IMG/VR virus record: IMGVR_UViG_3300032294_002823 | Length of the DNA: 64,000 bases | DNA from: a virus | Direction: 5' to 3' (one strand) | Shown here: positions 19,824-47,826 of the stretch, piece by piece | Layout: every line of letters begins with the position of its first letter | How positions within the stretch are numbered: position 1 is the first letter of the stretch | Notes under the pieces: model-generated | What the model saw: the letters and a program-made list of their open reading frames with translations, nothing else | The model's database searches: none | Told to the model about the DNA's origin: nothing | Made by a program: the position numbers and the translations under genes

Positions 19824-19846
19824 CTAATTTAACTTAATGAGATATT

Positions 19847-20122: not shown

Positions 20123-20123
20123 T

Positions 20124-20519: not shown

Positions 20520-20522
20520 ATC

Positions 20523-20792
20523 ATGTATAAAAAATATGAATATGAAAAGACCACACTCACCGCTCAGAGTTACAACAACAAGATTTCAGTAGAACTTCCT
20601 GCTGACATCACGTTGAATGAATTTCTTGATGCATGCCGTGTACTGGCTATTGGATTAACCTTTTGTCCTGACTCTTGGAAAGAGACCATCATTAATTTGG
20701 CTGATGAATATCGTGAACTTGATGAATATCGTGAAAAAAAATTCACACTCGGCAGTTCTGTATCTAGCACTGATGATGAATTTTTTCTATGA
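20523..20792 (+). CDS. Hypothetical protein
   Basis: ORF within operon. Confidence 0.65.
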   Translation: MYKKYEYEKTTLTAQSYNNKISVELPADITLNEFLDACRVLAIGLTFCPDSWKETIINLADEYRELDEYREKKFTLGSSVSSTDDEFFL

Positions 20793-21148
20793 GATTTCTC
20801 ACACGAAAGCTCGTACAACCCGGTGATTTAAATGCGGGCAGCACCTTGTTTGGAGGAAGATGTTTGGCGTGGATTGACGAAGAAGCCGCAATCTACGCCA
20901 GTATTGAATTACGTCATCGTAGAGTTGTTACCAAAAGCATCTCCGCCATCAACTTCATTGCTCCTGCCTTTCAAGGAGACATTGTTGAAATTGGCGTTGC
21001 ACTAAAGAAAGTAGGCAAGACGAGCATCACGCTTGAGGTTCAGGTACGGGACTTGACAACTCAGCGTGTTATTGTTAATATTGATGAAATGATTTTTGTT
21101 GCTGTTGATGAAAATGGGAGACCGGTGAAACATGGACTCTGTAAATAA
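20789..21148 (+). CDS. Acyl-CoA thioesterase (hotdog fold)
   Basis: DLN---TLFGG--LAWIDE; VGKTSI; FVAVDENGRP. Confidence 0.9.
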   Translation: MRFLTRKLVQPGDLNAGSTLFGGRCLAWIDEEAAIYASIELRHRRVVTKSISAINFIAPAFQGDIVEIGVALKKVGKTSITLEVQVRDLTTQRVIVNIDEMIFVAVDENGRPVKHGLCK

Positions 21149-21485
21149 GTTTGTCGTTGCCACAGGTGTATGGATCATTCTCACTCTTGTTGTGTATAAA
21201 CACATAGGATGGGAAAAGGTTCGTGAATGTTATTTGTTATGGACGAAACGAGAATATTGGACCAATTATAACATTGTTGAAGCCTTGAGCTGGTTTGCCA
21301 AGGCTATTATCATTGTTCCTGGATTAATCTTCAATGTTAGTATCTGGTGGTTATATTTCTTCACGCTGTTCACAAGTTTAACCTTAATTTGGGCAAGTAA
21401 TAAAAAACTTCTCCCCACCCTAGTAGGATTCAATACATTATGGGCATGGATTAGTTGTATGGTACTTGCAAAACACATACTATGA
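21132..21485 (+). CDS. Membrane protein
   Basis: Multiple TM segments. Confidence 0.7.
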   Translation: MDSVNKFVVATGVWIILTLVVYKHIGWEKVRECYLLWTKREYWTNYNIVEALSWFAKAIIIVPGLIFNVSIWWLYFFTLFTSLTLIWASNKKLLPTLVGFNTLWAWISCMVLAKHIL

Positions 21486-23032: not shown

Positions 23033-23625
23033 AAGTAGAACATGTATTCAACAGAAAAATTGTTCGTTTTCAATGTGATGAAGTGGAGTTTTACACCAAT
23101 GAAAATTTTCTTAATAATTTAAATAGATTGTTCAATCACCCATCAATGCGAGACAACGTTTCGAATGAACAGGTGGGCGATGCCCAAACAACAGTAGGAA
23201 AGAATTTTCTACTTCCTTTGAAGTTGCCCGGTGCGGAAAATCTAGAGCGTTGGATTCATGAACGATTAATGGAAGCAGCACCCCATTTCGTAGACTTCAC
23301 ACCCACCAGTATTCAATTTGTTCGCACATGGACAAATAAAATGTTTCGTGGGTGTGAAGGACAGACACACAATCACAAAGGCCCCAATCACGGCGTTGGT
23401 GTGTTTTATGTGAATATTCCAGAGAATGGAAGTGATTTAGTGTTTGTGCGCGATGGTGTGTACATGACAAAGATTTCAGATTATGCAATAGGTGATGTTG
23501 TATTTGCAGGAACGCGAACCGGTGAATTGGTATTACATGATACAGAAATTTCTCATGCTGTATCTGAACATGATAATGATGAACCAAGAATTTGTATCGT
23601 TGTGGAGTTCACATATATTCCATAA
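23029..23625 (+). CDS. 2OG-Fe(II) oxygenase (TIGR02466-like)
   Basis: W-N...HNH...GVFYV...H-V...RI motif pattern. Confidence 0.75.
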   Translation: MKVEHVFNRKIVRFQCDEVEFYTNENFLNNLNRLFNHPSMRDNVSNEQVGDAQTTVGKNFLLPLKLPGAENLERWIHERLMEAAPHFVDFTPTSIQFVRTWTNKMFRGCEGQTHNHKGPNHGVGVFYVNIPENGSDLVFVRDGVYMTKISDYAIGDVVFAGTRTGELVLHDTEISHAVSEHDNDEPRICIVVEFTYIP

Positions 23626-23630
23626 CACTA

Positions 23631-23704
23631 GGGGTGGTAGCTCAGTTGGTTAGAGCATCCGACTGTCACTCGGAAGGTCGCGGGTTCGACCCCCGTCCAT
23701 CCCG
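23631..23704 (+). tRNA. tRNA-Asp(GTC)
   Basis: TCCGA-ctGTCac-TCGGA. Confidence 0.93.
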
Positions 23705-23705
23705 T

Positions 23706-23900
23706 ATGAAAAAAGTTAAAAGTCCTTGTGTCAAACAATGTAAACTCCAAGATGATTATTGTTTTGGTTGTTTCCGGCATATAGATGAAATTGTCAAATG
23801 GAGACACTTGACAAACGAAGAAAAAACTGTTATATTACAAGAGTTGGAACAAAGAAAAATGGCACGGTGGTCTGAACTGGCTGAGGCACCGCTCTCATAA
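23706..23900 (+). CDS. DUF1289-like Cys-rich protein
   Basis: SPCV--C-L---CFGCFR--EI--W; 3' end overlaps tRNA-Met; contains promoter TTGACA(23808)-N17-TATATT. Confidence 0.75.
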   Translation: MKKVKSPCVKQCKLQDDYCFGCFRHIDEIVKWRHLTNEEKTVILQELEQRKMARWSELAEAPLS

Positions 23901-23936
23901 GGCGGGTTTATGTGGGTTCAAGTCCCACCCGTGCTA
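23861..23936 (+). tRNA. tRNA-Met(CAT) (elongator; Ile2 not excluded)
   Basis: CCGCT-ctCATaa-GGCGG. Confidence 0.85.
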
Positions 23937-23944
23937 CTAACTTT

Positions 23945-24028
23945 GGGGGTGCCGCAGAGTTGGAGGACTGCAACAGACTGTAAATCTGTCGCCATTAGGC
24001 CTAGTAGGTTCGAATCCTTCCACCCCCA
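23945..24028 (+). tRNA. tRNA-Tyr(GTA)
   Basis: ACAGA-ctGTAaa-TCTGT; long variable arm. Confidence 0.9.
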
Positions 24029-24031
24029 TAC

Positions 24032-24105
24032 CGTCACTTAGCTCAGCTGGTTAGAGCATCCGTCTGATACACGGAAGGTCCGGGGTTCAACTCCCTGAGT
24101 GACGA
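24032..24105 (+). tRNA. tRNA-Ile(GAT)
   Basis: TCCGT-ctGATac-ACGGA. Confidence 0.92.
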
Positions 24106-24109
24106 CTTT

Positions 24110-24182
24110 GCCCTTGTAGCTCAATTGGAAGAGCAGGAGATTTCTACTCTCTTGGTTGTGGGTTCGAGTCCTGCCAGGGGCG
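24110..24182 (+). tRNA. tRNA-Arg(TCT)
   Basis: GGAGA-ttTCTac-TCTCT. Confidence 0.9.
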
Positions 24183-24187
24183 CTAAT

Positions 24188-24269
24188 GGAAGGTTCGCAT
24201 AATGGTATTGCAGCTGTCTACTAAACAGCCGACCGAAAGGTTATGTGGGTTCGAATCCCTCACCTTCCG
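24188..24269 (+). tRNA. tRNA-Ser(ACT)
   Basis: GGAAGGT/ACCTTCC acceptor with G73; GCTGT-ctACTaa-ACAGC; long variable arm. Confidence 0.85.
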
Positions 24270-24294
24270 CTTTTTTCAATAGTTAGGAGATGTT

Positions 24295-24966
24295 ATGATT
24301 CTACTTCTTGGCGATATTCATGGTAACACAACACGCCTTCGTTCTGCAATTCAGAAGGCAGTGGAATGTGATGCAACCGCTCTCGTTCAAGTAGGCGATT
24401 TTGGGTTATTTCAAGGTAAACGAAATGAAGGAGAATTTTATGAAATGTGTAAAAATTCTTCAATACCTGTTTACTTCATTGAAGGAAATCATGATGATTG
24501 TAGCCGCTGGGTACGTTATGAAACAGTAACACGGGTATGGCATGATGCCAATTTGTTTTATATACCACGTGGCACGGTTATGGAAATAGATGGGCGCACT
24601 ATCGCCTTCATGGGTGGTGCTGCCAGTATTGATAAAGATATGCGTTTACGTGAAGGTTGGCATTGGGATAAAGAAGAAAATATTTCAGGGCATGAAGTAT
24701 TACGGTTATTTGAAAATGCTGAAGGAAAACAGATTGATGTATTGATTACCCATGATGTTCCTACATCTGTGTGTAAGACACATTTTGATGATAGTGGTAA
24801 ATTATATTTTGGTGTTGGCAAGGATTGGCATGATGTAAATATGGATGTGATTCAACGCATCTGGGACCGTGTGGGTAATCCCATGATTTACTCTGGGCAT
24901 ATGCATCGGTCAGTGATTGGTCCTAACTATCGTATTCTAAATATTGATGAACTATTGGCAATATGA
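24295..24966 (+). CDS. Metallophosphoesterase (calcineurin-like)
   Basis: GDIHG, VGDFG, GNHD, THD, GHMH. Confidence 0.9.
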   Translation: MILLLGDIHGNTTRLRSAIQKAVECDATALVQVGDFGLFQGKRNEGEFYEMCKNSSIPVYFIEGNHDDCSRWVRYETVTRVWHDANLFYIPRGTVMEIDGRTIAFMGGAASIDKDMRLREGWHWDKEENISGHEVLRLFENAEGKQIDVLITHDVPTSVCKTHFDDSGKLYFGVGKDWHDVNMDVIQRIWDRVGNPMIYSGHMHRSVIGPNYRILNIDELLAI

Positions 24967-25181
24967 AATTATCTGATGCCAATAATAATGAACAATTAGA
25001 AGTTATAGGATTGGAATCCAATGTGGAATATCTTGAACGATTACACTCATTGGGCATCATAGAGGGGTGTGCAATATGTCCTTTACGCAATCAAGATTCA
25101 ACAATGATTGTGGATGTTCGAGGATGTAGATATGCATTGGGAAAAGAAATTACGGAATGTATTCTTGTTAGGCGCTTATAG
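24963..25181 (+). CDS. feoA: FeoA-domain protein
   Basis: RLHSLGI-EG...VRG-RYALG; SH3-like FeoA pattern. Confidence 0.8.
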   Translation: MKLSDANNNEQLEVIGLESNVEYLERLHSLGIIEGCAICPLRNQDSTMIVDVRGCRYALGKEITECILVRRL

Positions 25182-25245
25182 CTCAACTGGATAGAGCATC
25201 TGACTACGGATCAGAAGGTTATAGGTTCGAATCCTTTTAGGCGCA
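25172..25245 (+). tRNA. tRNA-Arg(ACG)
   Basis: TCTGA-ctACGga-TCAGA. Confidence 0.93.
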
Positions 25246-25246
25246 T

Positions 25247-25429
25247 ATGAAAAAAACAACTGACCAAGAAATAGAGGAAATGCGTTTATCTCTGTTTCTG
25301 TTAAAATTAGAATTAGAAGGATATATTCGTGGTGATTGGTACTACGAATATCACATGACTATTGGTTATAATAAAAAATTTACCGGAAAAAAGATTCTTA
25401 GACTTGACAAAAGTGAAGAAACCGAGTAG
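25247..25429 (+). CDS. Hypothetical protein
   Basis: 60 aa between tRNAs; contains promoter TTGACA(25404)-N17-TAGATT. Confidence 0.45.
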   Translation: MKKTTDQEIEEMRLSLFLLKLELEGYIRGDWYYEYHMTIGYNKKFTGKKILRLDKSEETE

Positions 25430-25441
25430 ATTACAATCATA

Positions 25442-25514
25442 CGGGATGTAGCTCAATTGGCAGAGCACTCGCTTTGGGAGCGAGGGGTTGCTGGTTCAAG
25501 TCCAGTCATCCCGA
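25442..25514 (+). tRNA. tRNA-Pro(TGG)
   Basis: CTCGC-ttTGGga-GCGAG. Confidence 0.93.
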
Positions 25515-25530
25515 CTTACAAGGAGAAAAC

Positions 25531-25692
25531 ATGAAAGAAAAAGACAGACTACCAGACATCATTGCAATAATAGCAACAATCATTTTCATTGTATTTGCAT
25601 TTGTCATTTCTGGATCCGTTGGCACCGGCAATGGTGTCAGCGAGTTACAAGGCGGAGACATTCAACACGCCATAGATACAAAACAATACTAA
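25531..25692 (+). CDS. Small single-TM protein
   Basis: AAGGAG SD; hydrophobic IIAIIATIIFIVFAFVI. Confidence 0.7.
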   Translation: MKEKDRLPDIIAIIATIIFIVFAFVISGSVGTGNGVSELQGGDIQHAIDTKQY

Positions 25693-25695
25693 GTT

Positions 25696-25770
25696 GGACG
25701 AGTGGCAGAGAGGCCCAATGCAAGAGTCTGCAAAACTCTAAAGCCGCCGGTTCGAATCCGGCCTCGTCCT
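25696..25770 (+). tRNA. tRNA-Cys(GCA)
   Basis: AGAGT-ctGCAaa-ACTCT; U73. Confidence 0.92.
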
Positions 25771-35960: not shown

Positions 35961-36023
35961 TAAGTTGTTGATTTATAAGCACTTAGACAGGGACTTGACA
36001 AATGGTCCCTGTCGTGCTATATT
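35961..36023 (+). promoter_or_regulatory. Inverted repeat plus early promoter element
   Basis: TAAGT...ACTTA, then TTGACA(35995)-N17-TATATT; -35 box flanked by GACAGGGAC/GTCCCTGTC. Confidence 0.75.
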
Positions 36024-36049
36024 TCATATATAACTTCACAGGAGATGAT

Positions 36050-36364
36050 ATGAACACGGATTTGCTCATTCAAGAGTATCTTGACGTTCTCATTCAGGCG
36101 GTGAACAAGTATTACGCCAAGTATTATCCCAATCTGGAGCCCGATAAGTATTACATCATGAAGGGACGCAAGTATCACCGTGTGGTGTCGGCAGGCAAGC
36201 ATGGAAATCGGTCGGTTCATGCCTTTGTGGGTGAGGATGGTATGCTCTACAAGGCGGCAGGATGGGCGGCGCCCGCCAAGGATGCGCGGTACAATCTTGC
36301 CACAGACATGGACGTTCTTCGGGAACGTATTGATCCCCACGGCGGCTATCTCTATAAGCGGTAA
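36050..36364 (+). CDS. Conserved hypothetical early protein
   Basis: GRKY-RV...SVHAFV--DG--YKAAGW-APAK--RYN. Confidence 0.8.
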   Translation: MNTDLLIQEYLDVLIQAVNKYYAKYYPNLEPDKYYIMKGRKYHRVVSAGKHGNRSVHAFVGEDGMLYKAAGWAAPAKDARYNLATDMDVLRERIDPHGGYLYKR

Positions 36365-36369
36365 TCATC

Positions 36370-36639
36370 ATGCCCATTGACATCATCAGCATCCATGCTC
36401 CTGCCATTACCACACTACGTGGAAAGACCTGGGTGGTGCCGAATTGGGTTGAAGTGCCTCAGGGTACCACATTACAGGACATTTGCTGGATTCGTCCCGC
36501 GGAACCAAAAAGTAATAAGACCACGAAGCATGTAGGTAAATATCTCATCACCATTTATGATTCAGGAACCGTGACATGCGATTGTCCAGGATTTACATTT
36601 CGGAAAAAGTGCAAGCATTCCGCCGAATATTTAACATGA
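36370..36639 (+). CDS. SWIM zinc-finger protein
   Basis: CDCPGFTFRKKCKH. Confidence 0.8.
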   Translation: MPIDIISIHAPAITTLRGKTWVVPNWVEVPQGTTLQDICWIRPAEPKSNKTTKHVGKYLITIYDSGTVTCDCPGFTFRKKCKHSAEYLT

Positions 36640-36824
36640 AGCGCACATTTCGCAAAGTGAGACATCGGGTGGATGGCATGTTCATTGCCCGACAAATCCG
36701 AAAAACGGAAGTGTGTGTACAATGTCAGGTTGACACAGGTGTCCCCGTGGGGCTTGACATTTCAGAGCGATTGTTTTATGTTACAGGTGTCGGGCAACTC
36801 TGCCATGATTGTTATCTACCATAG
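36636..36824 (+). CDS. Small zinc-finger protein
   Basis: CVQC...YVTGVGQLCHDC. Confidence 0.65.
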   Translation: MKRTFRKVRHRVDGMFIARQIRKTEVCVQCQVDTGVPVGLDISERLFYVTGVGQLCHDCYLP

Positions 36825-36827
36825 GAG

Positions 36828-37082
36828 ATGAACATGCTTGTTAAGACGAACGACCTCAAGAAGGGTGACCGTGTGTTGCTGCGAAATGGGTGGTATGCCA
36901 CAATTCAGGATAATCGCAAGGGTGATGTCCGCGTGGCCACGGTGGAAGGAGTATATACGGAAACGGGTAGCGTCTATGCTCATGACATCATTGAGGCACA
37001 CATTGCCGATGCCTGGGTCACCATTTCACACACGCCCAAGCAACAGCAGTTGCAGCAGCGCGTGACACATTGGGGGTTCTGA
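36828..37082 (+). CDS. Hypothetical protein
   Basis: AGGAG SD; TNDLKKG...GSVYAHDI. Confidence 0.7.
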   Translation: MNMLVKTNDLKKGDRVLLRNGWYATIQDNRKGDVRVATVEGVYTETGSVYAHDIIEAHIADAWVTISHTPKQQQLQQRVTHWGF

Positions 37083-37191
37083 TGCGAAATAAGGACAAGG
37101 GAGGTTGGTGGGGACTCGCCGTGTTTGCCGCGGGAATGCTCATCATGGGCATTCACAAGGTCATCTCCGAGATGCTGGAGGATGATGAGTA

Positions 37192-37656
37192 ATGGGCTTG
37201 TTTAACAGAAGCATGGACGGCCGGAAAAACATCGACATCACGGAAATTCTTGACCTCCATCAAAGGTTCTTGAATGGAGATGAACAGGGTGTCATGGCAA
37301 ACTTGTCCAACACCAATTTGGCAGGCATGGATCTCACGGAAGTGAGTCTACGATATGCCGATTTGCGCGGGGCGAATCTCACACAAGCCAATTTAACGCG
37401 GGCGGATTTCACAGGTGTCAACTTGCAGGGCGCCAATCTGCGGAATGCCAATTGCACCGATGCCTTGTTTCGCTATGCCGATTTCACCCATAGTATTTGT
37501 GCCGGGGCAACATTCATGGGCGCCGACTTACGCAGCAGTGAATTGGTGAAATGCGATATGCGAAAAGCCAATTTCACCAATGCCGATTTCCGTGAAGTCA
37601 CGATGCGTCAGGTGAATCTCATGAATGCTCTATTAAATAACGCCATTTTTTGGTAA
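37192..37656 (+). CDS. Pentapeptide repeat protein
   Basis: A(D/N)Lxx repeats (ADLRGANLTQANLTRADF...). Confidence 0.9.
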   Translation: MGLFNRSMDGRKNIDITEILDLHQRFLNGDEQGVMANLSNTNLAGMDLTEVSLRYADLRGANLTQANLTRADFTGVNLQGANLRNANCTDALFRYADFTHSICAGATFMGADLRSSELVKCDMRKANFTNADFREVTMRQVNLMNALLNNAIFW

Positions 37657-37670
37657 CGACACAACAGGAG

Positions 37671-37865
37671 ATGATGATGTCAAAGTGGGACTATTTGGAC
37701 GAGGAATATGAACGTTATCAGCGCGTGGAGAAAATTCAGAAAAGCATGACACCCACGGGGAGTGTCACGGAGCATCTGAAATTCGTGGAACCGCGCAGAA
37801 ACAATGCCCAGAAGCGCCTCATGTATGCCCAGCAACGCGCTTTGAAACACCCAGTCTGGGATTAA
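37671..37865 (+). CDS. Hypothetical protein
   Basis: AGGAG SD; converges with minus-strand gene. Confidence 0.55.
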   Translation: MMMSKWDYLDEEYERYQRVEKIQKSMTPTGSVTEHLKFVEPRRNNAQKRLMYAQQRALKHPVWD

Positions 37866-38341
37866 CGGCGCCTTCTTCGTCCCCAGCACCAGCCGTCGGG
37901 TAACGTGAAGGGGAGATACATGAAATGTTCCCGTCCATCAGGACTGAGCGCCCAGCGTCTCGGTCCTCGATGCTTCATGCCCAGACTAATCTTCAATTTC
38001 GACCGGGGAGTATGGTGCATATTATAGAAATGATGATGTTCCCCGCGGCGTTGCTTCTTCATGGTGGCGGCGATTTTCCGTTTATGTGCATCAGATAATC
38101 CCGAGGCGTTGGGATTCTTGTTCCCGCGCTTGGCGTCGCGCATTTTTTCACGCCCTTCAGGGGTGATGCCCGTCCACGTGGTGTTCAATAAGGATGTGAC
38201 GGGATGCTGTTGTTTCTCGCAGTATCGTTGGGCATCTTGTATCTTCTTGAACACCCCGAGCAGTTCACTCCCAGGATGTGACATGCGCGGATGATGATCC
38301 GAGAGATACCAAATGTCCTCACGCTGAAACAGATAAATCAT
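37862..38341 (-). CDS. NUMOD3-motif DNA-binding protein
   Basis: REKMRDAKRGNKNP, LSDAHKRKI, H-PRSKLKIS repeats. Confidence 0.65.
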   Translation of the reverse strand: MIYLFQREDIWYLSDHHPRMSHPGSELLGVFKKIQDAQRYCEKQQHPVTSLLNTTWTGITPEGREKMRDAKRGNKNPNASGLSDAHKRKIAATMKKQRRGEHHHFYNMHHTPRSKLKISLGMKHRGPRRWALSPDGREHFMYLPFTLPDGWCWGRRRRR

Positions 38342-38790
38342 GTTTCCAAAATGCGCATGAAATGTCGATGTTGTTCACGAAATAACGTCTGAGTCATCAC
38401 CGACGTCCCATAATTGTCCAAATAGAAGGTTTCAGAAATGTTCGTGGCGAGTATGGCCTGAGCACATGACACACAGGGTGTATGCGTGACAAACAATGTA
38501 CAGTCAGACAACATGAACCAGCGCTCCCACCAAAACAGTTTCTTCAAGGCGTTCATTTCGGCATGAATCACAGTATCCAACGTTTTATTGTCACGTTCCA
38601 TGGTGTTGTCAGCACCCGCAGGGGTTCCATTATATCCCACACTAATGATGCGCCGTGAGGGACGATGCCAAATGACACATCCCACACGGGCACGAACAGC
38701 CCGACTGCGTTGAGATAATGCTCGAATGGTTTGAATACAGAAGCGCATGTCCCCAGGATGCATCTGAGACTTATGATTGAAAAGTGTCAT
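38338..38790 (-). CDS. cd: dCMP deaminase
   Basis: VGCVI...GYNGTP-G, HAEMNAL, PCVSCA. Confidence 0.9.
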   Translation of the reverse strand: MTLFNHKSQMHPGDMRFCIQTIRALSQRSRAVRARVGCVIWHRPSRRIISVGYNGTPAGADNTMERDNKTLDTVIHAEMNALKKLFWWERWFMLSDCTLFVTHTPCVSCAQAILATNISETFYLDNYGTSVMTQTLFREQHRHFMRILET

Positions 38791-38949
38791 AGAGTATTTT
38801 ATATATGAAAAACAATATCATGAGACATGATAATAAAAGAACACAGAGAATGCCAGAAACAAGAAAGATAGTCTGCGAGATGAAGGAAGTCAAGAGAGAA
38901 CACCAGAAGAAATGAGTTGTACTAAGACTAGAGATTGTGGATAATAGAC

Positions 38950-38957
38950 TATTTATA
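38950..38957 (-). promoter_or_regulatory. T4-type late promoter on minus strand
   Basis: TATTTATA on + strand (TATAAATA on -), upstream of dCMP deaminase. Confidence 0.5.
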
Positions 38958-39013
38958 AGGGTTTGAAATGAAGTAATCCCCCGCCTGCTCCCCATGTCCA
39001 CTGTGACCAGAAC

Positions 39014-39174
39014 TGCGGGTGTTATTGCGGGATATATCACGGGAAAAAATGCGGGTTATTCTGCGGGAAAAAATGCGGGTGGTGTGCGGGTGGTGTGCGG
39101 GTTGTGCACGTTCTCTTATACGCAATGCGCACCCCGCACCATGTAGCGCGCACCATCTAACACGCACCCCGCAC
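39014..39174. repeat. Iteron-like TGCGGG array with inverted copies
   Basis: Eight (T/C)(G/A)CGGG hexamers at 11-12 bp spacing (39014-39101), then CCCGCA copies near 39133 and 39168. Confidence 0.75.
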
Positions 39175-39267
39175 ATGATGATACGTAACCCCATGTACCC
39201 ACGCATCTTGACATATCATGGAACATCATGTATATTCAGAGATATACCCCACACACAGGAGATGGTT

Positions 39268-39498
39268 ATGGGAAATTCTGGAGCGCGTGCTGACCGTGAA
39301 ATGCAGGCCCTGATGCGGAAAGTGCGCAAGTTGGCGGCTCGACAGCGCGGGACCCCCCAGGAGCAGCAGGACCGGGAGGACCAGGAGGCGGCGCCGGCGA
39401 AGAGGCGGTTCGTGGATGTGTCAGGCGAACATGATGTCCGCGTGGAGGATGCCACCGCCGACGAGATTTTCCGCGAAATGAAGCGCCGGGATTTTTAA
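39268..39498 (+). CDS. Hypothetical early protein
   Basis: Promoter TTGACA(39208)-N17-TATATT and AGGAG SD. Confidence 0.65.
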   Translation: MGNSGARADREMQALMRKVRKLAARQRGTPQEQQDREDQEAAPAKRRFVDVSGEHDVRVEDATADEIFREMKRRDF

Positions 39499-39501
39499 AA
39501 T

Positions 39502-39640
39502 TGGGAAATCCTCAGGTACCTCAGCGCTGAACATCTCAACGCTGGGAATCTCAGCACGAAGATATTTTTGGGAATTTCGGAATTTCAGCACTGGGAATCT
39601 CAGCACTGAGACACCTGGAAATCGGAAAAAAATATTTTCC
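39502..39640. repeat. Degenerate ~15-bp repeats (CTCAGCACTGGGAAT)
   Basis: ctcagcgctgaacat, ctcaacgctgggaat, ctcagcacgaagata, ttcagcactgggaat, ctcagcactgagaca. Confidence 0.65.
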
Positions 39641-39682
39641 AAAAGCACTTGACAAATGGTTCCTGGGGTGCTAGATTGCGGT

Positions 39683-39868
39683 ATGATGAAAAACGACACC
39701 GAACTCCGCCTCGAGCTGACGTTCCATCCCGAGGCGTCCGAGGCAGAAAAAACGCAAATCACGCGCATGCTGGCAACGGCAATCGCCGACATCATGGATG
39801 ATGAAATGCGTTTCACGGATCTAGGCGAGCTGTTGCAGGATTACACGGTGAAGATGCACAGGGCTTGA
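39683..39868 (+). CDS. Hypothetical early protein (predicted leaderless)
   Basis: ATG 5 nt after -10 box; stop codon inside next TTGACA. Confidence 0.7.
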   Translation: MMKNDTELRLELTFHPEASEAEKTQITRMLATAIADIMDDEMRFTDLGELLQDYTVKMHRA

Positions 39869-39898
39869 CACATGGTGCCCCCTAGTGTATACTACAGT

Positions 39899-40090
39899 AT
39901 GATGAAAAACGACAACACAACCGAACAGGCGCAGCAGGCGCAGCAGGCGCAGCAGGCGCAGCAGGATCAGTCCCTCATGGGCGGCTACTATCATGGCCCC
40001 AGCAATGAGGCGGGGCTCACCGCCCGGGAATACTGGGACGCCCGGTGGGAATATGAGGATGAGCAGGAACGCCTCAGGAACGATTGGTAA
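39899..40090 (+). CDS. Hypothetical early protein with (QAQ)4 repeat (predicted leaderless)
   Basis: CAGGCGCAG x4 at 39926-39961; ATG 5 nt after -10 box. Confidence 0.65.
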   Translation: MMKNDNTTEQAQQAQQAQQAQQDQSLMGGYYHGPSNEAGLTAREYWDARWEYEDEQERLRNDW

Positions 40091-40091
40091 C

Positions 40092-40397
40092 ATGATGCGT
40101 AGACGCATACAACCCAAGCCCCCCACGGGCACCCAGGCTCTACTCGCGGCAGAGCGCGAGGCGCGCAAGCAACGGTTACAATCCCGGGTCAGGCTCAGCC
40201 CAGGTGGGCGCCCCATGTGCCAGTACTGCGGGGTGCATGAGGCCCAGCATACGGGGCATCGCAGAAAGGATGGGAGCGTGATTTTGCGAAAACATGAAAA
40301 GCTGTACACTTGCGCAGAATGCCATAATACACGCTATGACATCACCCCCTATTGGGGACCGCGATATAAACGCGAGGATGTTGCTGAGGCCTACTAA
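40092..40397 (+). CDS. Zinc-finger hypothetical protein
   Basis: CQYC...CAECH. Confidence 0.6.
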   Translation: MMRRRIQPKPPTGTQALLAAEREARKQRLQSRVRLSPGGRPMCQYCGVHEAQHTGHRRKDGSVILRKHEKLYTCAECHNTRYDITPYWGPRYKREDVAEAY

Positions 40398-40483
40398 GTG
40401 CATGGAAATCAAGCACTTACCCCAGGGCTTGACAAATGGTGGAAACCAGTTTATACTACGGTATACACTCAAAGGAGAACAGC

Positions 40484-40651
40484 ATGACGGTGTTCGTGGT
40501 GATGGGTTCAGGCGACAAAAATGGCACCCTGCCTGAGTATACGCTTCGGGTGTTTGCTGAGCGCAAGGATGCCGTGCAGTATAAAAAGGAATTGCGGAAC
40601 CAGGCCTTCAGCTACGTGACCATCACCGAACGTCAGGTGAACAGGGCTTGA
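40484..40651 (+). CDS. Hypothetical early protein
   Basis: AAGGAG SD; stop inside TTGACA. Confidence 0.7.
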   Translation: MTVFVVMGSGDKNGTLPEYTLRVFAERKDAVQYKKELRNQAFSYVTITERQVNRA

Positions 40652-40703
40652 CAAATGGTGGAAACCAGTTTAGCTTTAGGTATACACTCAAAAGGAGAAC
40701 AGC

Positions 40704-40994
40704 TTGTCCCAGTATAACGGTTGGACGAACTATGAAACGTGGCGCGTGAACCTGGAAATGCTCGACGGGATGACCATCGAGGACTTCGGATACACGGTTC
40801 GCTACAGCGACCCCGACGACATGGAGAAGTTGGTGGAGGACCTGGCAGGCAGCTTGGAAGAGTATGTGAATGAGCTAGTGGAGCAGGACTCCAAGGGGTT
40901 CGCGCTCGACCTCGCCCAGAGTTTCCTCAGCAAGGTGGATTGGGAGGAAATCGCGGAGCACATGGTGGATGACTACGCAGCGGAGATGGTGTAA
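40704..40994 (+). CDS. Conserved acidic early protein
   Basis: YNGWTNYETW-V-L...V-W-EIA; TTG start after AAGGAG. Confidence 0.75.
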   Translation: MSQYNGWTNYETWRVNLEMLDGMTIEDFGYTVRYSDPDDMEKLVEDLAGSLEEYVNELVEQDSKGFALDLAQSFLSKVDWEEIAEHMVDDYAAEMV

Positions 40995-41269
40995 TGGTAA
41001 ATCGTAACCAGGTGGCATTTGTGAACATTGTTCCGGTGTTGGAGCATATGGGATACTCCGAGGATGAGCAGGATCAGATTCTGGATGCTGGGTTCAGCAA
41101 CGTCACTTGGGGAGATGCCACCTACACGCTGATTGGCAACAACTTCGCCTTGGATTGCATTCACCGGGGCAACGTGTATCTGGACACGCCTCTGGCTGAG
41201 GATGCTGTCACTATGCGATATTGGGAAGTGGTGGGACAGGATGATTACATCAACATGGAGTGGTTCTAA
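40994..41269 (+). CDS. Hypothetical protein
   Basis: TAATG coupling. Confidence 0.7.
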   Translation: MVNRNQVAFVNIVPVLEHMGYSEDEQDQILDAGFSNVTWGDATYTLIGNNFALDCIHRGNVYLDTPLAEDAVTMRYWEVVGQDDYINMEWF

Positions 41270-41490
41270 TGGATCAGCATTTCACGGACACGGAACGCAA
41301 GGCCATCACCGACGCCTACATCCACCGGGTCATGGATAATATGTCCATGGCAGAGCTCTGCCAGTTTATGTATGAAAAGCTGGACGAGGAGTTGAATGAG
41401 CTGAATGACATTCAGCTGGAGTCGCAGGTTGCTGAGTATGCGCCGGACATTATCGAGGATGTAATGTTTCCCACCATCAAGGAACACTAA
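41269..41490 (+). CDS. Acidic hypothetical protein
   Basis: TAATG coupling. Confidence 0.7.
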   Translation: MDQHFTDTERKAITDAYIHRVMDNMSMAELCQFMYEKLDEELNELNDIQLESQVAEYAPDIIEDVMFPTIKEH

Positions 41491-41663
41491 TGCTTTGGCG
41501 ATTTGAGGATGCCACGGGTGTGTGGCGGACGGGCAAGATGGAACGGTTTTCGGATTTCGGTGGCACCGATGTCACCTATTGGTTCAAGGATCAGGATGGA
41601 CGCATCCACCTGGTGTCAGGCGCACGACTCAAGGCAGCATACCCCTTTCCAGAGGCAAACTAA
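41490..41663 (+). CDS. Hypothetical protein (57 aa)
   Basis: MLWRFEDATGVWRTGKM...; TAATG coupling; not in ORF track. Confidence 0.65.
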   Translation: MLWRFEDATGVWRTGKMERFSDFGGTDVTYWFKDQDGRIHLVSGARLKAAYPFPEAN

Positions 41664-41664
41664 C

Positions 41665-41844
41665 ATGGCGGAACGCATTCTCGGTGCACTGTACGAAGGC
41701 AAGGAATATCAGCAGGCGATGGCAGAGGCCAAGCGGGAGTTCCAAGCCTGGGAGCGGGATAAAAAGCGCAACCGCGTGTCCACCAAGGAGAAATACAAGG
41801 CGCAGCGCCTCGCCAAGCTCCATATGATGGAGATGATGCGCTAA
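41665..41844 (+). CDS. Hypothetical protein
   Basis: MAERILG...; stop is the TAA of the TAAGT element. Confidence 0.65.
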   Translation: MAERILGALYEGKEYQQAMAEAKREFQAWERDKKRNRVSTKEKYKAQRLAKLHMMEMMR

Positions 41845-41911
41845 GTCCATGTAAATCAAGCACTTACGCCAGGGCTTGACAAATGGGGGAAACGGTGCTA
41901 TATTACACTAT

Positions 41912-42256
41912 ATGATGAATAACACCTACTCCGATGATGTGCGCGTGATGACTGCCGCGCTCCTGGTGTCCACGCAGTGCTATGAAAACTACGCCTTCAC
42001 GCCGGAAGGGGATGTGGATGGGGAGAACCCCTACTGGAAGGCGAAGGGGGGATCGGACTACCTGATCCTCAACGTGGACGCAGAGTCCACGGGGCTGGAG
42101 ATCCAGTATGTACTGGATGCCGTGGCTCCGCAGGTGGAGACGGACAACCCCCTCTTCCGGGAGTACATCATTGGATCCCGGGTGGTGCCTGCCAACTTCA
42201 CCTTCGGGGATTGGCGGGATGACTTCCTGGAAACCATTCCCAACCCCAGGGCTTGA
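41912..42256 (+). CDS. Conserved early protein (predicted leaderless)
   Basis: TQ-YENY...YWKAKGGS-Y motif; ATG 7 nt after -10 box. Confidence 0.75.
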   Translation: MMNNTYSDDVRVMTAALLVSTQCYENYAFTPEGDVDGENPYWKAKGGSDYLILNVDAESTGLEIQYVLDAVAPQVETDNPLFREYIIGSRVVPANFTFGDWRDDFLETIPNPRA

Positions 42257-42288
42257 CAAACCCGGAATCCGGTGCTATATTACAGTAT

Positions 42289-42480
42289 ATGAAAACATAC
42301 ACCATTAATCGGTTCGCTGAGGTTGAGGGCTTCGCCTCCACGTGGTACGTCATTAACATGGTGACGGGTCTGGCGCAGGACACCGTGTACCGCACCTACA
42401 CCGAGGCGCGCGCTGCCGCGGATTTCCTGAAAACCTATTATCAGGCAGTGGAGCGGGGGCACCCACCCCGATCCTGGTGA
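42289..42480 (+). CDS. Hypothetical early protein (predicted leaderless)
   Basis: ATG 7 nt after -10 box; no SD. Confidence 0.65.
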   Translation: MKTYTINRFAEVEGFASTWYVINMVTGLAQDTVYRTYTEARAAADFLKTYYQAVERGHPPRSW

Positions 42481-42520
42481 GCACTTGACAAATGGTTCCC
42501 CGGGTGCTATATTACATGGT

Positions 42521-42697
42521 ATGATGAATATTTACCAAATCCGAGAATACCCCGACGGCATCGCCGTGGTGGACGTGCGCACCAACTCCACGATTAATAC
42601 GTGGAACCCCGAGCTCAAGCACATGGCGGTGCACTTCTGCCAGCTCCTGAATGAGCGCCTGGACCGGGAAATTTGGTCGAAACCCATTTACGCCTAG
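42521..42697 (+). CDS. Hypothetical early protein (predicted leaderless)
   Basis: ATG 7 nt after -10 box; no SD. Confidence 0.65.
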   Translation: MMNIYQIREYPDGIAVVDVRTNSTINTWNPELKHMAVHFCQLLNERLDREIWSKPIYA

Positions 42698-42756
42698 GGC
42701 TTGACAAATGGTTCCCAGGGTGCTATATTACAGTATACACTCAAAGGAGATTAAGC

Positions 42757-42939
42757 ATGTACCATGTCCCGATGTGCAAGGTGTGCGGCGAGCATGAGGT
42801 GGGCACGTTCATCGGTAGCGCGGAGTTTTGCTCGGAGAAGTGCCAGACGGAGGCTTGCTACTCCTATGATGCCCCGGGCGACGGATGGGGGTATGATGAC
42901 TGCGAAGCCCTCTATGCAGGATCCTACTCTGAGGAGTAG
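42757..42939 (+). CDS. Small zinc-finger early protein
   Basis: CKVC...FCSEKC; AAGGAG SD. Confidence 0.7.
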   Translation: MYHVPMCKVCGEHEVGTFIGSAEFCSEKCQTEACYSYDAPGDGWGYDDCEALYAGSYSEE

Positions 42940-43012
42940 GGCTTGACAAATGGTTGAAACGGTGCTAGATTACGCAGTATAGTCACTCAACACAACACAC
43001 ATCCCAGGAACT

Positions 43013-43852
43013 ATGTCTCTCCAGATTAAGCGTCGTGGTCGTCCCTCCAAGCAGATGCTCGCCGAGCGCGCCTCGAAGGCAACCGTCAAGGCTCGCACCG
43101 ATATCGAGGTTCTCACCGACCTCAAGGATCGGTTCGACATGTTGGGCAAGCTCACGCAGGGTAGCACCAAGGGTGACATTCGCAGCATGGTGGTGACGGG
43201 TGCCCCAGGCGTAGGCAAGACCTACACGGTGAGCAACATCCTTGAGAATACGCCGAACATTGTCACGGAGTCGGTGTCGGGCGCCATCAGCGCGGTCGAG
43301 CTCTACAAGCTCGGGTATCGCAATCGCAAGCACGGCAACGTGATTGTCCTGGATGACGCCGACAGCATCTTCACCGATGAGGACGCGCTCAACATCCTCA
43401 AGGCGCTCTGCGACTCCAGCGCCAATCGCCGCGTGTCTTGGCTCAAGGACAGTCACACGCTCAAGCAGGATGATGTTCCGCAGAGCTATGAATTTCACGG
43501 CTCATTCATTTTCATTTCCAACCTTGACTTCCAGAAGTATGTAGACATGGGCGGGAACAAGTATGTCACGCATTTCGAGGCGCTCATGTCACGTAGCCTC
43601 TACTTGGATCTGCGTCTCCATGACCGGCAGGCCATTAGTCTCTGGATCGAGCACATTGCCACGGGCGGCAAGCTCTTTGCGCGGGAAAATGTCAAGCCAG
43701 ACGTTGGGAATAAGATTCTCGCCTTCATTAAGCAGCATCGGGACGACCTGCGTGAGCTGAGTCTGCGTACGGTCATGAAGCTCTGCGCGCTTGCCAAGAG
43801 TCACCCCACGGACTGGGAGCGCATGGGACGGGTTCTCTTGACGCGAGGCTAA
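43013..43852 (+). CDS. AAA+ ATPase with N-terminal AT-hook
   Basis: KRRGRPSK; Walker A GAPGVGKT; Walker B VIVLDDAD; FISN; AL-SR. Confidence 0.85.
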   Translation: MSLQIKRRGRPSKQMLAERASKATVKARTDIEVLTDLKDRFDMLGKLTQGSTKGDIRSMVVTGAPGVGKTYTVSNILENTPNIVTESVSGAISAVELYKLGYRNRKHGNVIVLDDADSIFTDEDALNILKALCDSSANRRVSWLKDSHTLKQDDVPQSYEFHGSFIFISNLDFQKYVDMGGNKYVTHFEALMSRSLYLDLRLHDRQAISLWIEHIATGGKLFARENVKPDVGNKILAFIKQHRDDLRELSLRTVMKLCALAKSHPTDWERMGRVLLTRG

Positions 43853-43957
43853 GTGCATGGGACGTAAGCACTTATCCCCTCGCGCCCGTAAGTGCATATA
43901 AATCAAGCACTTAGCCAGGGCTTGACAAATGGTTCCCCGGGTGCTATATTACGCTAT

Positions 43958-44131
43958 ATGACTAAAACGACCAAGACAATCGACGCAACGCCCACGTGGG
44001 AATCACTGGTTCCCGTTCTCCTCTACCTTGTCCGAAACGCGCGCACCGTGAGCGCGGATATTGAGCAGGAGCTGGTTCGCATGGCTCAAGCAGCCGATAA
44101 GTGGAACGCTCACTGCAAGGAGACCCGCTAA
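43958..44131 (+). CDS. Hypothetical early protein (predicted leaderless)
   Basis: TID-TPTW motif; ATG 7 nt after -10 box. Confidence 0.65.
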   Translation: MTKTTKTIDATPTWESLVPVLLYLVRNARTVSADIEQELVRMAQAADKWNAHCKETR

Positions 44132-44844
44132 TGTTTACGGAAGTGAACCCCAAGCTGGTGAAGGGTGAAATCCTCGGGTACAAGAGCTTCGGGATCCATT
44201 TTGCCCCGGCGCGGATCTCGGGGTATCAGGTGTGCAGTTCCGCGAGCGAAGGATGCACCACGGCGTGCCTCTACACCTCGGGACATGGCAGGTTCACGCG
44301 CACGCAGGAATCGCGCATCGCCAAGACCCGTCGGTTTTTCGAGGAGCGTCCTGAGTTCCTCACGGAGCTGGTGAAGCACGTGGAAGCTGCCATCCGGAAG
44401 GCGAAGCGGTTGCAGCTCACCCCAGCATTCCGGTTCAACCTCACTTCCGACGTGCGCTGGGAACTGGTCCCCGTCATGGTGAAGGGTGTCCAGTATGAAA
44501 ACATCATGCAGGCATTTCCGCAGGTGCAATTTTACGATTACACCAAGCATACGAACCGCAGGAACATCCCCGCAAACTACCACCTCACGTTCTCACGCAG
44601 CGAAAGCAATGATGGTGACGTAGAGGAGATGTTTTTCCAGGGATACAACGTGGCGGTGGTGTTCGACACCAAGAAGGGTGAACCCCTGCCCACCACGTAC
44701 AAGGGTCGCCCCGTAATTGACGGCGACGAACATGACCTGAGGTTCCTAGACCCCAAGGGTGTTTGGGTGGGTCTGCGCGGCAAGGGGGAAGCCAAGAAGC
44801 ACGACCACAATGGGTTTGTCATCATCACACGCAACAGGAGCTAA
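44131..44844 (+). CDS. GP88-family protein (Cys-cluster, radical-SAM-like fold)
   Basis: C-----GC---CL, R-N-TSD, QFYDYTK, NYHLTFS-SE, DGD-HDLRFLD. Confidence 0.75.
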   Translation: MFTEVNPKLVKGEILGYKSFGIHFAPARISGYQVCSSASEGCTTACLYTSGHGRFTRTQESRIAKTRRFFEERPEFLTELVKHVEAAIRKAKRLQLTPAFRFNLTSDVRWELVPVMVKGVQYENIMQAFPQVQFYDYTKHTNRRNIPANYHLTFSRSESNDGDVEEMFFQGYNVAVVFDTKKGEPLPTTYKGRPVIDGDEHDLRFLDPKGVWVGLRGKGEAKKHDHNGFVIITRNRS

Positions 44845-44846
44845 TT

Positions 44847-44969
44847 ATGGATAACGTGACATATTTCTTTGCATTTCTCGGCGCCACTCTGACCGGATCC
44901 CTTGTAGGCATTTTGCTTGCGGAATTGGTGCTGCGCGCGAAGGACGCCATCCAAGGGGTGTCGTCATGA
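44847..44969 (+). CDS. Small TM protein
   Basis: AGGAG SD; hydrophobic core. Confidence 0.55.
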   Translation: MDNVTYFFAFLGATLTGSLVGILLAELVLRAKDAIQGVSS

Positions 44970-45198
44970 TGAACATCCTCATGATGCTGATGATCCTGGC
45001 GATAGGAGTGCTGGCAGGCGGCGTTATGATATATGTTCTGGACAGGACATGAAAACCGAGGTAGGGAAATCTCTAGTCATCCATAGTGTGTAAGGCGACA
45101 TAAACCCCCTATTGACAGGTATCGTGTCTTTCCCCCTTACATGAAAAACTCCATACATTGTCAGAATTCCCTATAGAAAAAATTTTTCCCAGCAAAAC

Positions 45199-46065: not shown

Positions 46066-46688
46066 ACGCCAACATTCCCGTGATGAGTTGTTTGGTGCGC
46101 GGAGAATATCTTCAAAATCATGAACGCGGGTGGGGCGAATATTATCCCTGCATTGCCTTTGCCATTATGAGCCGTCCGGGTGAAGCCACGTTGTTCAACA
46201 TTCTCATGGAAGATGGGGGTGTCTGGTGGGGTGTGCCCATCAGTGCCTTGTGCTGGAAAGAATGTGAACATCGTCCTTTGGAACAATTGCAACTCTGGAA
46301 CAATTTCAGCTACAACGTGAGTGTAACCACGTTTGCCGCGTTGAGCCATTTGTCATGCATCTATTATGATAGAGACAATGTAAAACATCTCGGAGAATAT
46401 CTGTTCACCATAGATTGGAGTCAGGGTGATTATTCAGAATTGCGCTATGGCTATGCCGAAACAGCAGACAATCATAAATGCGGGCATGTGATAAAGTTGG
46501 ATTCCGGGCATTTTGCCATACAACCCAATAATCGAATGCGCTTCTTTGACCCCAGCTTCACGGTGAAGAAAGACTTGGTGGTGCACCGCCTCATCTCCGA
46601 TAAGAAATATCGTGTGGAGAACACGCCGAAATATTCCACGGAAGATAGTAACGCCTTTTATTACAACATCATCCAAGATAACACTTAA
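46053..46688 (+). CDS. Conserved hypothetical phage protein
   Basis: LNANIP...YLFTIDW...HKCGH...QPNNR. Confidence 0.75.
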   Translation: MAYLNANIPVMSCLVRGEYLQNHERGWGEYYPCIAFAIMSRPGEATLFNILMEDGGVWWGVPISALCWKECEHRPLEQLQLWNNFSYNVSVTTFAALSHLSCIYYDRDNVKHLGEYLFTIDWSQGDYSELRYGYAETADNHKCGHVIKLDSGHFAIQPNNRMRFFDPSFTVKKDLVVHRLISDKKYRVENTPKYSTEDSNAFYYNIIQDNT

Positions 46689-46701
46689 CCCGAGAAGAAT
46701 T

Positions 46702-47775
46702 ATGGCATCCGATTTACGTCCCGCGGAATTGTTTAAATATGATTGGCGTGTAGAGAAGTTTCTAGAAAAATATAAAACAAAAAGTGCCTTCACCACCACG
46801 GACAGAAAACAGGTGGTGCTTCTCCCACAAGAACACATCATTGCTCTCATAGAAGCGCGCAACACCTTGGAGATGAACAAAGCCCTACTCGTCACCGAGA
46901 AAGGTGTCGGGATGAAACTCTCTCAGTTACAAAAGACGGCTGAGTTTGGAGGCAAAGGGGGTGCCGTGGGCACTGTGGTGGCTAGTCCCTCAGGAGAGGC
47001 GGTACATGGATTATTGGCGCGAATGCATCACTTGGATACACGATATGCATTGAACGCACCCACCGCCACGGAGCGCGGTGAATTAATGGTGTTACAAGAC
47101 ATTAATCAATACATTTTAAAGTTGGAAACCCCAATTGATGTGAACATTGGGGGCAAGGTGTATAAAAACATTTATGGTGCCAACAAAGTGAAGGGCACAC
47201 CCAAGGCGGACATTACATTGGTTTCATTCAATGACACCACAAAGAAATTTCAGGATGTCTATTTTCTATCACATAAATTAGGTACGGACTCCAGTGGGTT
47301 CCAACAATATTCAGGCGTGAGTGCCGATGCCGATGGTAGTAAACCTGGCGCCATTAGTCAACATCCAGAAGTGTTGGCATTTCTCCGACAATTGGCAGAA
47401 GTGTATGATGCCATTGTTGATGGGCGCCAACGATTTTATGCCGATATTAAAGATGATGCATTAATAGGGAAGGCGGTGTATGGTCCGGAATTCAGTGGGT
47501 ATGGTAGACATGCCGATAACGTGAACATGATTGCCCAAGGTAACCCAATTCTGCGCCCACAGGGCAATACCCATGCCCTATCATTTTCTGCTGTGGCATC
47601 ATCATTTTCCACAGACATTTCTCATTTTAAATCCAATGGGTATAAAGCCATATTGGGTGCTCGATATGGTGCCGACAGAAAATTTCAAGTGGATGGAAAA
47701 GTGTATAACCATGTGCGCGTGGGCATCATGCCCATAAAGTTGCTGGGGAGTAACGCCAAACCAATTGGCTCTTGA
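46702..47775 (+). CDS. Putative PD-(D/E)XK-type nuclease-like protein
   Basis: GTPKADI...LSHK...FQQY-G; LQKTAEFGG. Confidence 0.5.
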   Translation: MASDLRPAELFKYDWRVEKFLEKYKTKSAFTTTDRKQVVLLPQEHIIALIEARNTLEMNKALLVTEKGVGMKLSQLQKTAEFGGKGGAVGTVVASPSGEAVHGLLARMHHLDTRYALNAPTATERGELMVLQDINQYILKLETPIDVNIGGKVYKNIYGANKVKGTPKADITLVSFNDTTKKFQDVYFLSHKLGTDSSGFQQYSGVSADADGSKPGAISQHPEVLAFLRQLAEVYDAIVDGRQRFYADIKDDALIGKAVYGPEFSGYGRHADNVNMIAQGNPILRPQGNTHALSFSAVASSFSTDISHFKSNGYKAILGARYGADRKFQVDGKVYNHVRVGIMPIKLLGSNAKPIGS

Positions 47776-47826
47776 CAACGAGAAGAACAGTTATATATTT
47801 CATATATACTTTCACTGGGAGATATT

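Follow-up and report, generated by a model that had tools for sequence, protein, structure and literature searches.

A dense array of sigma70-type promoters bounds variable small-gene cassettes in a probable PeSL-type early region of an uncultured T4-type phage

The DNA analysed here is a stretch of 64,000 nucleotides (nt) from the IMG/VR virus record IMGVR_UViG_3300032294_002823, referred to below as the window. Between positions 39649 and 43950 (4.3 kb) its + strand carries ten copies of a sigma70-type promoter, and the small genes between these copies differ in content and order among related phages, with breakpoints inside the repeated element. We consider it likely that this array is a hyperplastic early region of the promoter early stem-loop (PeSL) type in an uncultured freshwater T4-type phage and that it is shuffled by homologous recombination. 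Each unit would open with a strong host sigma70-type promoter (TTGACA, 17 nt, TGnTATATT) and, because it recurs every 200-1200 bp, this element would offer a portable stretch of homology to the homologous recombination system of the phage. Crossing-over from one copy to another would delete, insert, replace and re-order the unrelated small genes in between, possibly by way of circular intermediates, and no site-specific recombinase would be required. The early timing and the promoter activity assumed in this scheme are predictions from the sequence.

Results and Discussion

Anatomy of the promoter array

All ten promoters consist of TTGACA, a 17-nt spacer and a TAnnnT hexamer. Seven of them have a TG-extended -10 region, and eight match at least 10 of the 12 consensus positions. 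Their TTGACA boxes start at the first position given for each in the following lines.

39649..39677, + strand: promoter element 1, TTGACA-17-TAGATT, TG-extended; predicted to drive the apparently leaderless open reading frame (ORF) 39683-39868
39865..39893, + strand: promoter element 2, TTGACA-17-TATACT; the TGA in its -35 is the stop of the 61-amino-acid (aa) ORF
40429..40457, + strand: promoter element 3; left repeat copy bounding a 219-bp cassette
40648..40676, + strand: promoter element 4, poor -10 TAGCTT; right repeat copy, heading the five-gene unit 40704-41844
41876, 42253, 42485 and 42701, + strand: promoters of four single-gene cassettes, one per cassette, in the block 41876..42943
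42943..42971, + strand: promoter element 9, predicted to drive the AAA ATPase gene; resembles the GP88 promoter of the relatives and not their ATPase promoter
43922..43950, + strand: promoter element 10, predicted to drive the apparently leaderless ORF 43958-44131

A repeat finder placed the ten, together with a promoter at 35995, in one 37-nt family (D1). The original prediction, made from the letters of the window, had described ten near-identical sigma70 promoters; the number stands, but near-identical is generous, as identity to the reference copy is 62-86% over 37 nt. Exact copies of GGGCTTGACAAATGG occur six times in the array, as do exact copies of GTGCTA(T/G)ATTAC. A strict scan of the 64-kb window for TTGACA-N16-18-TAnnnT found 27 sites on the + strand, ten of them within this 4.5 kb, and none on the - strand, and a consensus scan of 35.5-46.5 kb found 27 promoter-like sites as compared to 12.1 +/- 3.3 in shuffled sequence. 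In a nearly complete relative, the viral contig G002 introduced below, no 4.5-kb stretch of the 178 kb holds more than four strict sites, versus ten in the window array. Looser members of the family lie elsewhere in the window (13236, 16362, 16432, 18173, 23808, 25404, 27525, 35995, 47772 and 52741), and because such copies occur throughout, the array element is the general early-promoter consensus of the phage, unusually dense here. Promoters of this family (16362, 16432, 18173, 23808 and 25404) are also interspersed among the three clusters in which 26 tRNA genes are arranged at 16497-25770. An Rfam search of 35.5-46.5 kb gave no match, and the T4-type late promoter TATAAATA was not found on the + strand of the array. 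When spacer class was set against leader class in a four-gamete style test, three of the four combinations were present, the fourth only if single-base -10 variants are counted.

At the internal junctions, the stop codon of each of the nine upstream ORFs lies inside the -35 box or 3-4 nt ahead of it, or coincides with the TAA of a 25-nt motif, TAAGT-N15-ACTTA, that precedes some of the elements. Read directly from the sequence, these placements are the ones that had been claimed. The TGA within TTGACA ends the ORFs at 39868, 40651 and 42256, whose proteins all end in RA; the TAG of TAGGGCTTGACA, directly before GGGCTTGACA, ends those at 42697 and 42939; the TGA of TGAGCACTTGACA, before GCACTTGACA, ends the one at 42480; and the TAA of TAAGT ends those at 40397, 41844 and 43852. 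The further claim that the element defines the stop codons holds for one reading frame of three, AGG GCT TGA. In the other two the ORF brings its own stop, which abuts the element, in one frame as TAG GGC, a CAG-to-TAG change, and in the third just upstream of the element, and the notion of a universal three-frame stop was rejected. Stops that abut the element are what extreme compaction would give.

Comparison with related phages

Collinearity of the window with G002, a 178-kb, 99%-complete viral contig, extends over about 52 kb (65-82% nucleotide identity). Among the products of G002 are a major capsid protein of the gp23 type (PF07068, E 6e-140), with its nearest counterparts in pelagiphage HTVC008M, methylophage Melnitz and cyanomyophages (64-69%), and a protein of the RecA/UvsX family. 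From these two predicted proteins and from the collinearity of window and G002 we assign the source phage, an uncultured T4-type phage, to the aquatic branch of the T4 superfamily. The metagenomes of the relatives are taken as freshwater, with the contig names as sole basis. Megablast of the array and of the 26-36 kb region against 50,697 phage records returned no match. Microcystis phage Mel-JY01, which has the best ribonucleotide reductase match (64%), was dropped as a comparator as it has neither the promoter pattern nor the ATPase. Comparisons were made with a close lineage of about 96.7% nucleotide identity, comprising seven loci on six contigs (L029, L041 and L070 (= G001), L098, L099, L100 and L101), with five of the contigs spanning the 40.4-kb junction, and with a distant lineage, L105 (part of G002), L106, L107 and L108, whose ATPase is about 80% identical at the amino acid level, plus L109 at 71%.

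The contigs of the close lineage differ from the window at four places. They are without window 40486-40642, a 219-bp indel that amounts to exactly one cassette, namely a promoter and the 55-aa ORF. In the alignment, the two copies that are spaced 219 bp apart in the window correspond to a single hybrid element in the relatives, and the crossover falls within the shared CAGGGCTTGACAAATGGTGGAAACCAGT, that is, in the promoter and not in the inverted repeat. The 55-aa protein has no relative in viral contigs, and its single-gene cassette is missing from every relative examined. The stretch that follows, 40642-41013, is only 83% identical to the close lineage, and this diverged patch starts at the same element as the indel; 41013-41480 is replaced or unalignable (467 versus 346 bp). 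On its left the patch 40486-41480 ends in an element, on its right at a plain gene border.

Over a larger distance the array region varies in content between lineages while its flanks stay collinear. Between the promoter homologous to 35995 and the ATPase gene, L105-L109 contain few and dissimilar promoters. The order in these relatives is 59-aa gene, TAAGT motif, one promoter, GP88-like gene, second promoter and ATPase gene, whereas in the window the 59-aa gene and the motif are followed by four promoter-plus-ORF cassettes (114, 63, 58 and 60 aa), a promoter, the ATPase gene, a doubled motif, a promoter, a 57-aa ORF (ORF57) and the GP88-like gene. The ATPase gene and the GP88-like gene have thus changed places between window and relatives, with the junctions at promoters, and the four-cassette block 41876..42943 is missing from G002 and L106/L107. 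The promoters at either end of this block (41876 and 42943) share 33 of 40 positions with each other, which is the best match for 42943 and for 41876 a tie with 42253. They are also the array copies nearest to the single promoter that the relatives have there (25 of 40 positions each). The likeness of the flanking promoters is suggestive, as it is the footprint expected if the cassettes entered a resident promoter by homologous recombination. Neither L105-L109 nor any part of G002 contains any of the six single-gene cassettes that have an element on each side, as compared to 6 of 23 other genes that are missing (Fisher p=0.002). Lineage specificity is also more frequent among promoter-proximal than among distal genes (p=0.03). 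The prediction that cassette content and order vary among relatives, with several breakpoints in the element, is thus borne out by the 219-bp indel, the four-cassette block and the permutation of the GP88-like and ATPase genes; synteny is not fixed.

The TAAGT-N15-ACTTA motif and stem-loops

The inverted repeat TAAGT...CACTTA had been reported ahead of three array promoters, once of them in doubled form, and it is found there.

40395..40419, + strand: TAAGT-N15-ACTTA, 25 nt; its TAA ends the 101-aa ORF; folds weakly (z -1.4) and lacks a T tract
41842..41866, + strand: TAAGT-N15-ACTTA; its TAA is the stop of the 59-aa ORF; kept at the same place in L105-L107
43850..43913 (43850-43874 and 43889-43913), + strand: doubled TAAGT-N15-ACTTA; first copy with the ATPase stop, inside a longer GC stem

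Copies in the window start at 13203, 35961, 40395, 41842, 43850 and 43889. The length of the motif is fixed at 25 nt and its arms are conserved across lineages; the stop of the upstream gene often lies inside it. It is located 5-9 nt upstream of the -35 at five window promoters and at seven promoters of G002, and within the array it is the longer units that carry it upstream. The doubled motif (43843-43921) folds at -32 kcal/mol (z -4.2). Single copies reach z values of -1.4, 0.06, -1.3 and -2.7, with no T tract after any of them, and those in the array (-1.4 and 0.06) fold no better than shuffled sequences. Moreover, the right arm and the interior of the motif are better conserved than its pairing. 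The motif may therefore act no less as a promoter-upstream or protein-binding module than as an RNA hairpin or terminator. Around the -35 boxes of the ten array elements, no significant hairpin was found relative to shuffled controls. Two other window promoters have a strong predicted hairpin with the -35 hexamer as its loop, at 35987-36020 (z -5.7) and 16354-16390 (z -7.3). The first of these, formed by an 8-bp inverted repeat around the -35 of promoter 35995, is kept in the homologues (L105 1261, L106 673 and L107 1141) by compensatory changes in the stem and is followed by a T run, which indicates that composite terminator-promoters exist in this phage group.

The original prediction saw in the array an integron-like capture platform that recombines via the inverted repeats. 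In its strict form this would be a system with a dedicated site-specific recombinase encoded elsewhere in the genome, for which TAAGT-N15-ACTTA is the attC-like site of capture and excision. The fixed length of 25 nt, the conserved arms and the doubling of the repeat after the ATPase gene would fit such a site. Then again, the motif stands at only three of the ten array junctions, the crossover that could be mapped lies in the promoter and not in the motif, and some exchanges took place at plain gene borders. Its fixed position 5-9 nt upstream of the -35, in the window as in G002, better fits a promoter-upstream module. No recombinase or integrase family match was found among the ORFs screened at 36-47 kb, in keeping with the earlier remark that none is visible; there is no attC-like site, and the cassettes carry promoters of their own, unlike those of integrons, with no common Pc. 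We regard a true integron-like system as very improbable.

Alternative explanations

Is the promoter element, then, a substrate of exchange or simply a constrained feature of a compact genome? Several observations weigh against a shuffling role of the element. One extended consensus is common to the early promoters across the window and in G002, so that much of the similarity between elements may reflect functional constraint and not recent copying. The comparison at useful distance comprises two lineages only, and a single rearrangement has both breakpoints cleanly inside element copies. Both ends of the 41013-41480 replacement are at overlapping TAATG stop/start junctions. An indel at 37156-37677, which concerns a pentapeptide-repeat gene, has its breakpoints at the gene ends, and the replacement 46686-47793 lies at a plain gene border, both with no element present; on its right the latter ends where a gene with a diverged promoter ahead of it begins. 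The 73-aa DUF7326 gene (41267-41483) is 96.3% identical at the nucleotide level to that of L107, as compared to 72-75% for the backbone, and its 91-aa neighbour is 86.7% identical; both genes are missing from the 96.7% lineage. By these identities, the DUF7326 gene appears as a recent single-gene exchange bounded by gene borders. The weak folding of the single array motifs, which lack T tracts, and the lack of a significant hairpin around the -35 boxes, both described above, belong here too.

These observations could be accommodated by a dense row of constrained early promoters in a compact genome, where genes turn over through illegitimate recombination or recombination at gene borders, the element plays no particular role in shuffling and the 219-bp deletion is ordinary direct-repeat loss. 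The same consensus is indeed found at early promoters in AT-rich and GC-rich surroundings alike, the element-free rearrangements (pentapeptide indel, 41013-41480, 46686-47793 and L107 exchange) are about as many as those with breakpoints in elements, and stops that abut the promoter, supplied by the element in one frame only, are expected from compaction. However, such a row of promoters would not readily explain that six of six element-bounded genes are lineage-specific as opposed to 6 of 23 others, that 10 promoters are packed in 4.5 kb where the complete relative has at most four, that a hybrid element is found exactly at the 219-bp indel, or that the four-cassette block is flanked by two promoters resembling a single ancestral one. 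We judge this explanation to be unlikely, and a PeSL-type region shuffled by homologous recombination remains our preferred reading. Since exchanges also occurred at plain gene borders, the promoter element is not their sole route; the region is a general mosaicism hot spot, in which the element is one substrate among others.

Genes of the array and its surroundings

Sixteen ORFs of 55-279 aa lie between 39683 and 44844. The promoter units hold, in order, 1, 2, 1, 5, 1, 1, 1, 1, 1 and at least 3 of them.

39683-39868, + strand: 61-aa ORF, lineage-specific
39899-40090, + strand: 63-aa ORF, with homologues of 80% (L105) and 63% (L106)
40092-40397, + strand: 101-aa ORF, Cys-rich
40484..40651, + strand: 55-aa ORF with AAGGAG leader; stops in the -35 of element 4
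40704..41844, + strand: five coupled ORFs of 96 aa (DUF7249, TTG start), 91 aa, 73 aa (DUF7326), 57 aa and 59 aa
41912-42256, + strand: 114-aa ORF, single-gene cassette
42289-42480, + strand: 63-aa ORF, single-gene cassette
42521-42697, + strand: 58-aa ORF, single-gene cassette
42757-42939, + strand: 60-aa ORF, single-gene cassette
43013-43852, + strand: 279-aa AAA ATPase (phrog_1250)
43958-44131, + strand: 57-aa ORF (ORF57), coupled by TAATG to the GP88-like gene
44131-44844, + strand: GP88-like gene (PF17338)

Relative to the 96.7% lineage the array ORFs show 58 synonymous and 14 non-synonymous codon differences, which argues that they are real genes under purifying selection. Twelve of the sixteen have no Pfam or PHROG match; the others match DUF7249, DUF7326, an uncharacterised AAA ATPase family (phrog_1250) and GP88 (PF17338), and a small match of ORF57 to phrog_22670 adds no function. 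Sequence searches of the PDB with three cassette proteins and one ESM Atlas look-up returned nothing informative. The 279-aa AAA ATPase is a conserved, uncharacterised gene of T4-like phages. Its homologues, 33-40% identical, are present in more than 1300 T4-like phage records under annotations that vary between hypothetical protein, clamp loader and thioredoxin.

In six of the first genes (39683, 39899, 41912, 42289, 42521 and 43958) the ATG lies 5 or 7 nt past the -10 hexamer and is not preceded by a Shine-Dalgarno sequence. Judged by this spacing, their mRNAs are probably leaderless; leaderless early mRNAs are unusual for a T4-type phage. Four of these six genes open with ATGATGAA, and three other first genes have a common TATACACTCAAAGGAG leader. 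Common 5' ends of neighbouring cassettes had been noted before: ATGATGAAAAACGAC indeed occurs twice, at 39683 and 39899, but TATACACTCAAAGGAGA, said to occur three times, is exact only twice, the third copy having one extra A. Such likeness between neighbours, up to 15 nt of 5' coding sequence (ATGATGAAAAACGAC) together with a common leader, might point to tandem duplication of one promoter-plus-gene unit followed by divergence, with the cassettes as a paralogous family. The likeness ends at the fifth codon, however, and all-against-all BLASTP of the cassette proteins gave no pair below E 0.07, for which reason a paralogous gene family was rejected at the sequence level. Tandem duplication is thus extremely improbable and, since none of the cassette ORFs is related to another, repetition is confined to regulatory sequence.

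The array genes, whose G+C content at third codon positions (GC3) is 0.60-0.81, form part of a GC-rich island (window 36000-45000); GC3 in the backbone genes that flank it is 0.34-0.46. L105-L107 are likewise GC-rich in the homologous region. The island could be of foreign origin, or its early genes could be tuned to the codon use of the host, in a phage with 26 tRNA genes. A bolder version of the PeSL reading would make the element a stripped-down, hairpin-less PeSL: a promoter of about 36 nt that makes up the whole intergenic region, with the stop of the upstream gene in its -35 and a leaderless mRNA starting from it, and that was favoured by selection as a hot spot of recombination for GC-rich, foreign, ready-to-express genes, where a conserved GGGC flank or a CCCGGG-type spacer palindrome might direct breaks or strand invasion. 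This version we consider doubtful and rather improbable.

The 114-aa cassette protein has homologues of 37-40% identity, matching window 41912-42253, in an otherwise unrelated family of IMG/VR viral contigs, L112-L114. There the homologues are flanked by another repeat, TAGTACCCATACAGTTGACTCGGGTACC...TATAAT-like, with the -35 inside an inverted repeat and a TAG stop at the edge, and the spacing from -10 to ATG is the same as in the six leaderless-type genes of the window. By its layout this appears to be a second PeSL-like system with the same 114-aa gene family.

Upstream of the array, the pentapeptide-repeat gene 37192-37656 (154 aa) is absent from the 96.7% relatives, L105 and L107, and has a 66% counterpart in the same slot of L106; its product could be an accessory protein of the DNA-mimic type. 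A dCMP/cytidine deaminase gene (38338-38790) is on the - strand within an otherwise + strand region, and a T4-type late-promoter motif (TATAAATA) occurs on the - strand at 38950-38957, some 160 nt upstream of the deaminase gene. A 24-nt tandem repeat (TGCGGG...GGGAAAAAA) occupies 39026-39110, in the 5' part of a 149-aa ORF, and the 140-nt gap before the first array promoter (39500-39645) contains three to four copies of a GGGAATCTCAGCAC-like motif.

Significance and comparison with known systems

If our reading is correct, it would extend promoter-mediated cassette shuffling, documented in T4 relatives that infect coli, Yersinia and Vibrio hosts, to an uncultured freshwater branch of T4-type phages. 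It also provides a clean natural example of a single cassette that is present or absent exactly between two promoter copies. Compact, apparently leaderless units in a GC-rich island could help to explain how foreign accessory genes are taken up and immediately expressed, and the small, presumably early proteins are worth screening for host-takeover or counter-defence activity.

Integron arrays are composed of IntI, attI, attC and Pc. Like them, the window array is a row of short, unrelated, same-strand genes that are split by a repeated element and vary in content among relatives. It differs in that no attI and, among the ORFs at 36-47 kb, no integrase was found, that the repeat is a promoter and not a folded attC site, with the inverted repeat at 3 of 10 boundaries, and that each cassette has its own predicted promoter in place of a single Pc; recombination here would most simply be homologous. 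The integron analogy was drawn by the authors of the PeSL studies themselves (PMC2839356, PMC4122927).

The ORFanage of cyanomyophage S-PM2 is likewise a block of small ORFans in an aquatic T4-like phage, which can be spontaneously lost and shows signs of horizontal acquisition (PMC4503421). It has a low density of PeSL-like motifs, and PeSL-mediated acquisition was judged unlikely (PMC4503421). The window array, in contrast, has a very high element density and a breakpoint inside an element.

The closest likeness is to the PeSLs. Phages RB49/phi1, T4/PST and KVP40/nt-1 gain and lose ORFans flanked by PeSLs, and these are also excised in the form of mini-circles (Arbiol et al. 2010, PMC2839356; Comeau et al. 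2014, PMC4122927). The differences in cassette content and order between window and relatives agree with what these elements were described to do. In both cases repeated sigma70-consensus early promoters are concentrated in a hyperplastic region of a T4-type genome and flank small ORFans, the stop of the upstream gene lies at the start of the element, close relatives differ by indels and replacements with breakpoints in elements, and the phage's own recombination machinery is invoked, with no dedicated recombinase. Different from the PeSLs, 7 of the 10 window elements have no detectable stem-loop and the three upstream inverted repeats are weak, AT-rich and without T tract; six cassettes are apparently leaderless, with the promoter alone filling the intergenic space, and at three junctions the stop codon is part of the -35 hexamer itself. 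Moreover, the region is a GC-rich island by GC3, and it belongs to an aquatic lineage with capsid relatives among pelagiphages, methylophages and cyanomyophages. Taken together, the cassette-shuffling mechanism itself is already known, and the array presents a variant of it in which most elements lack a hairpin, several starts appear leaderless and the genes sit in a GC-rich island.

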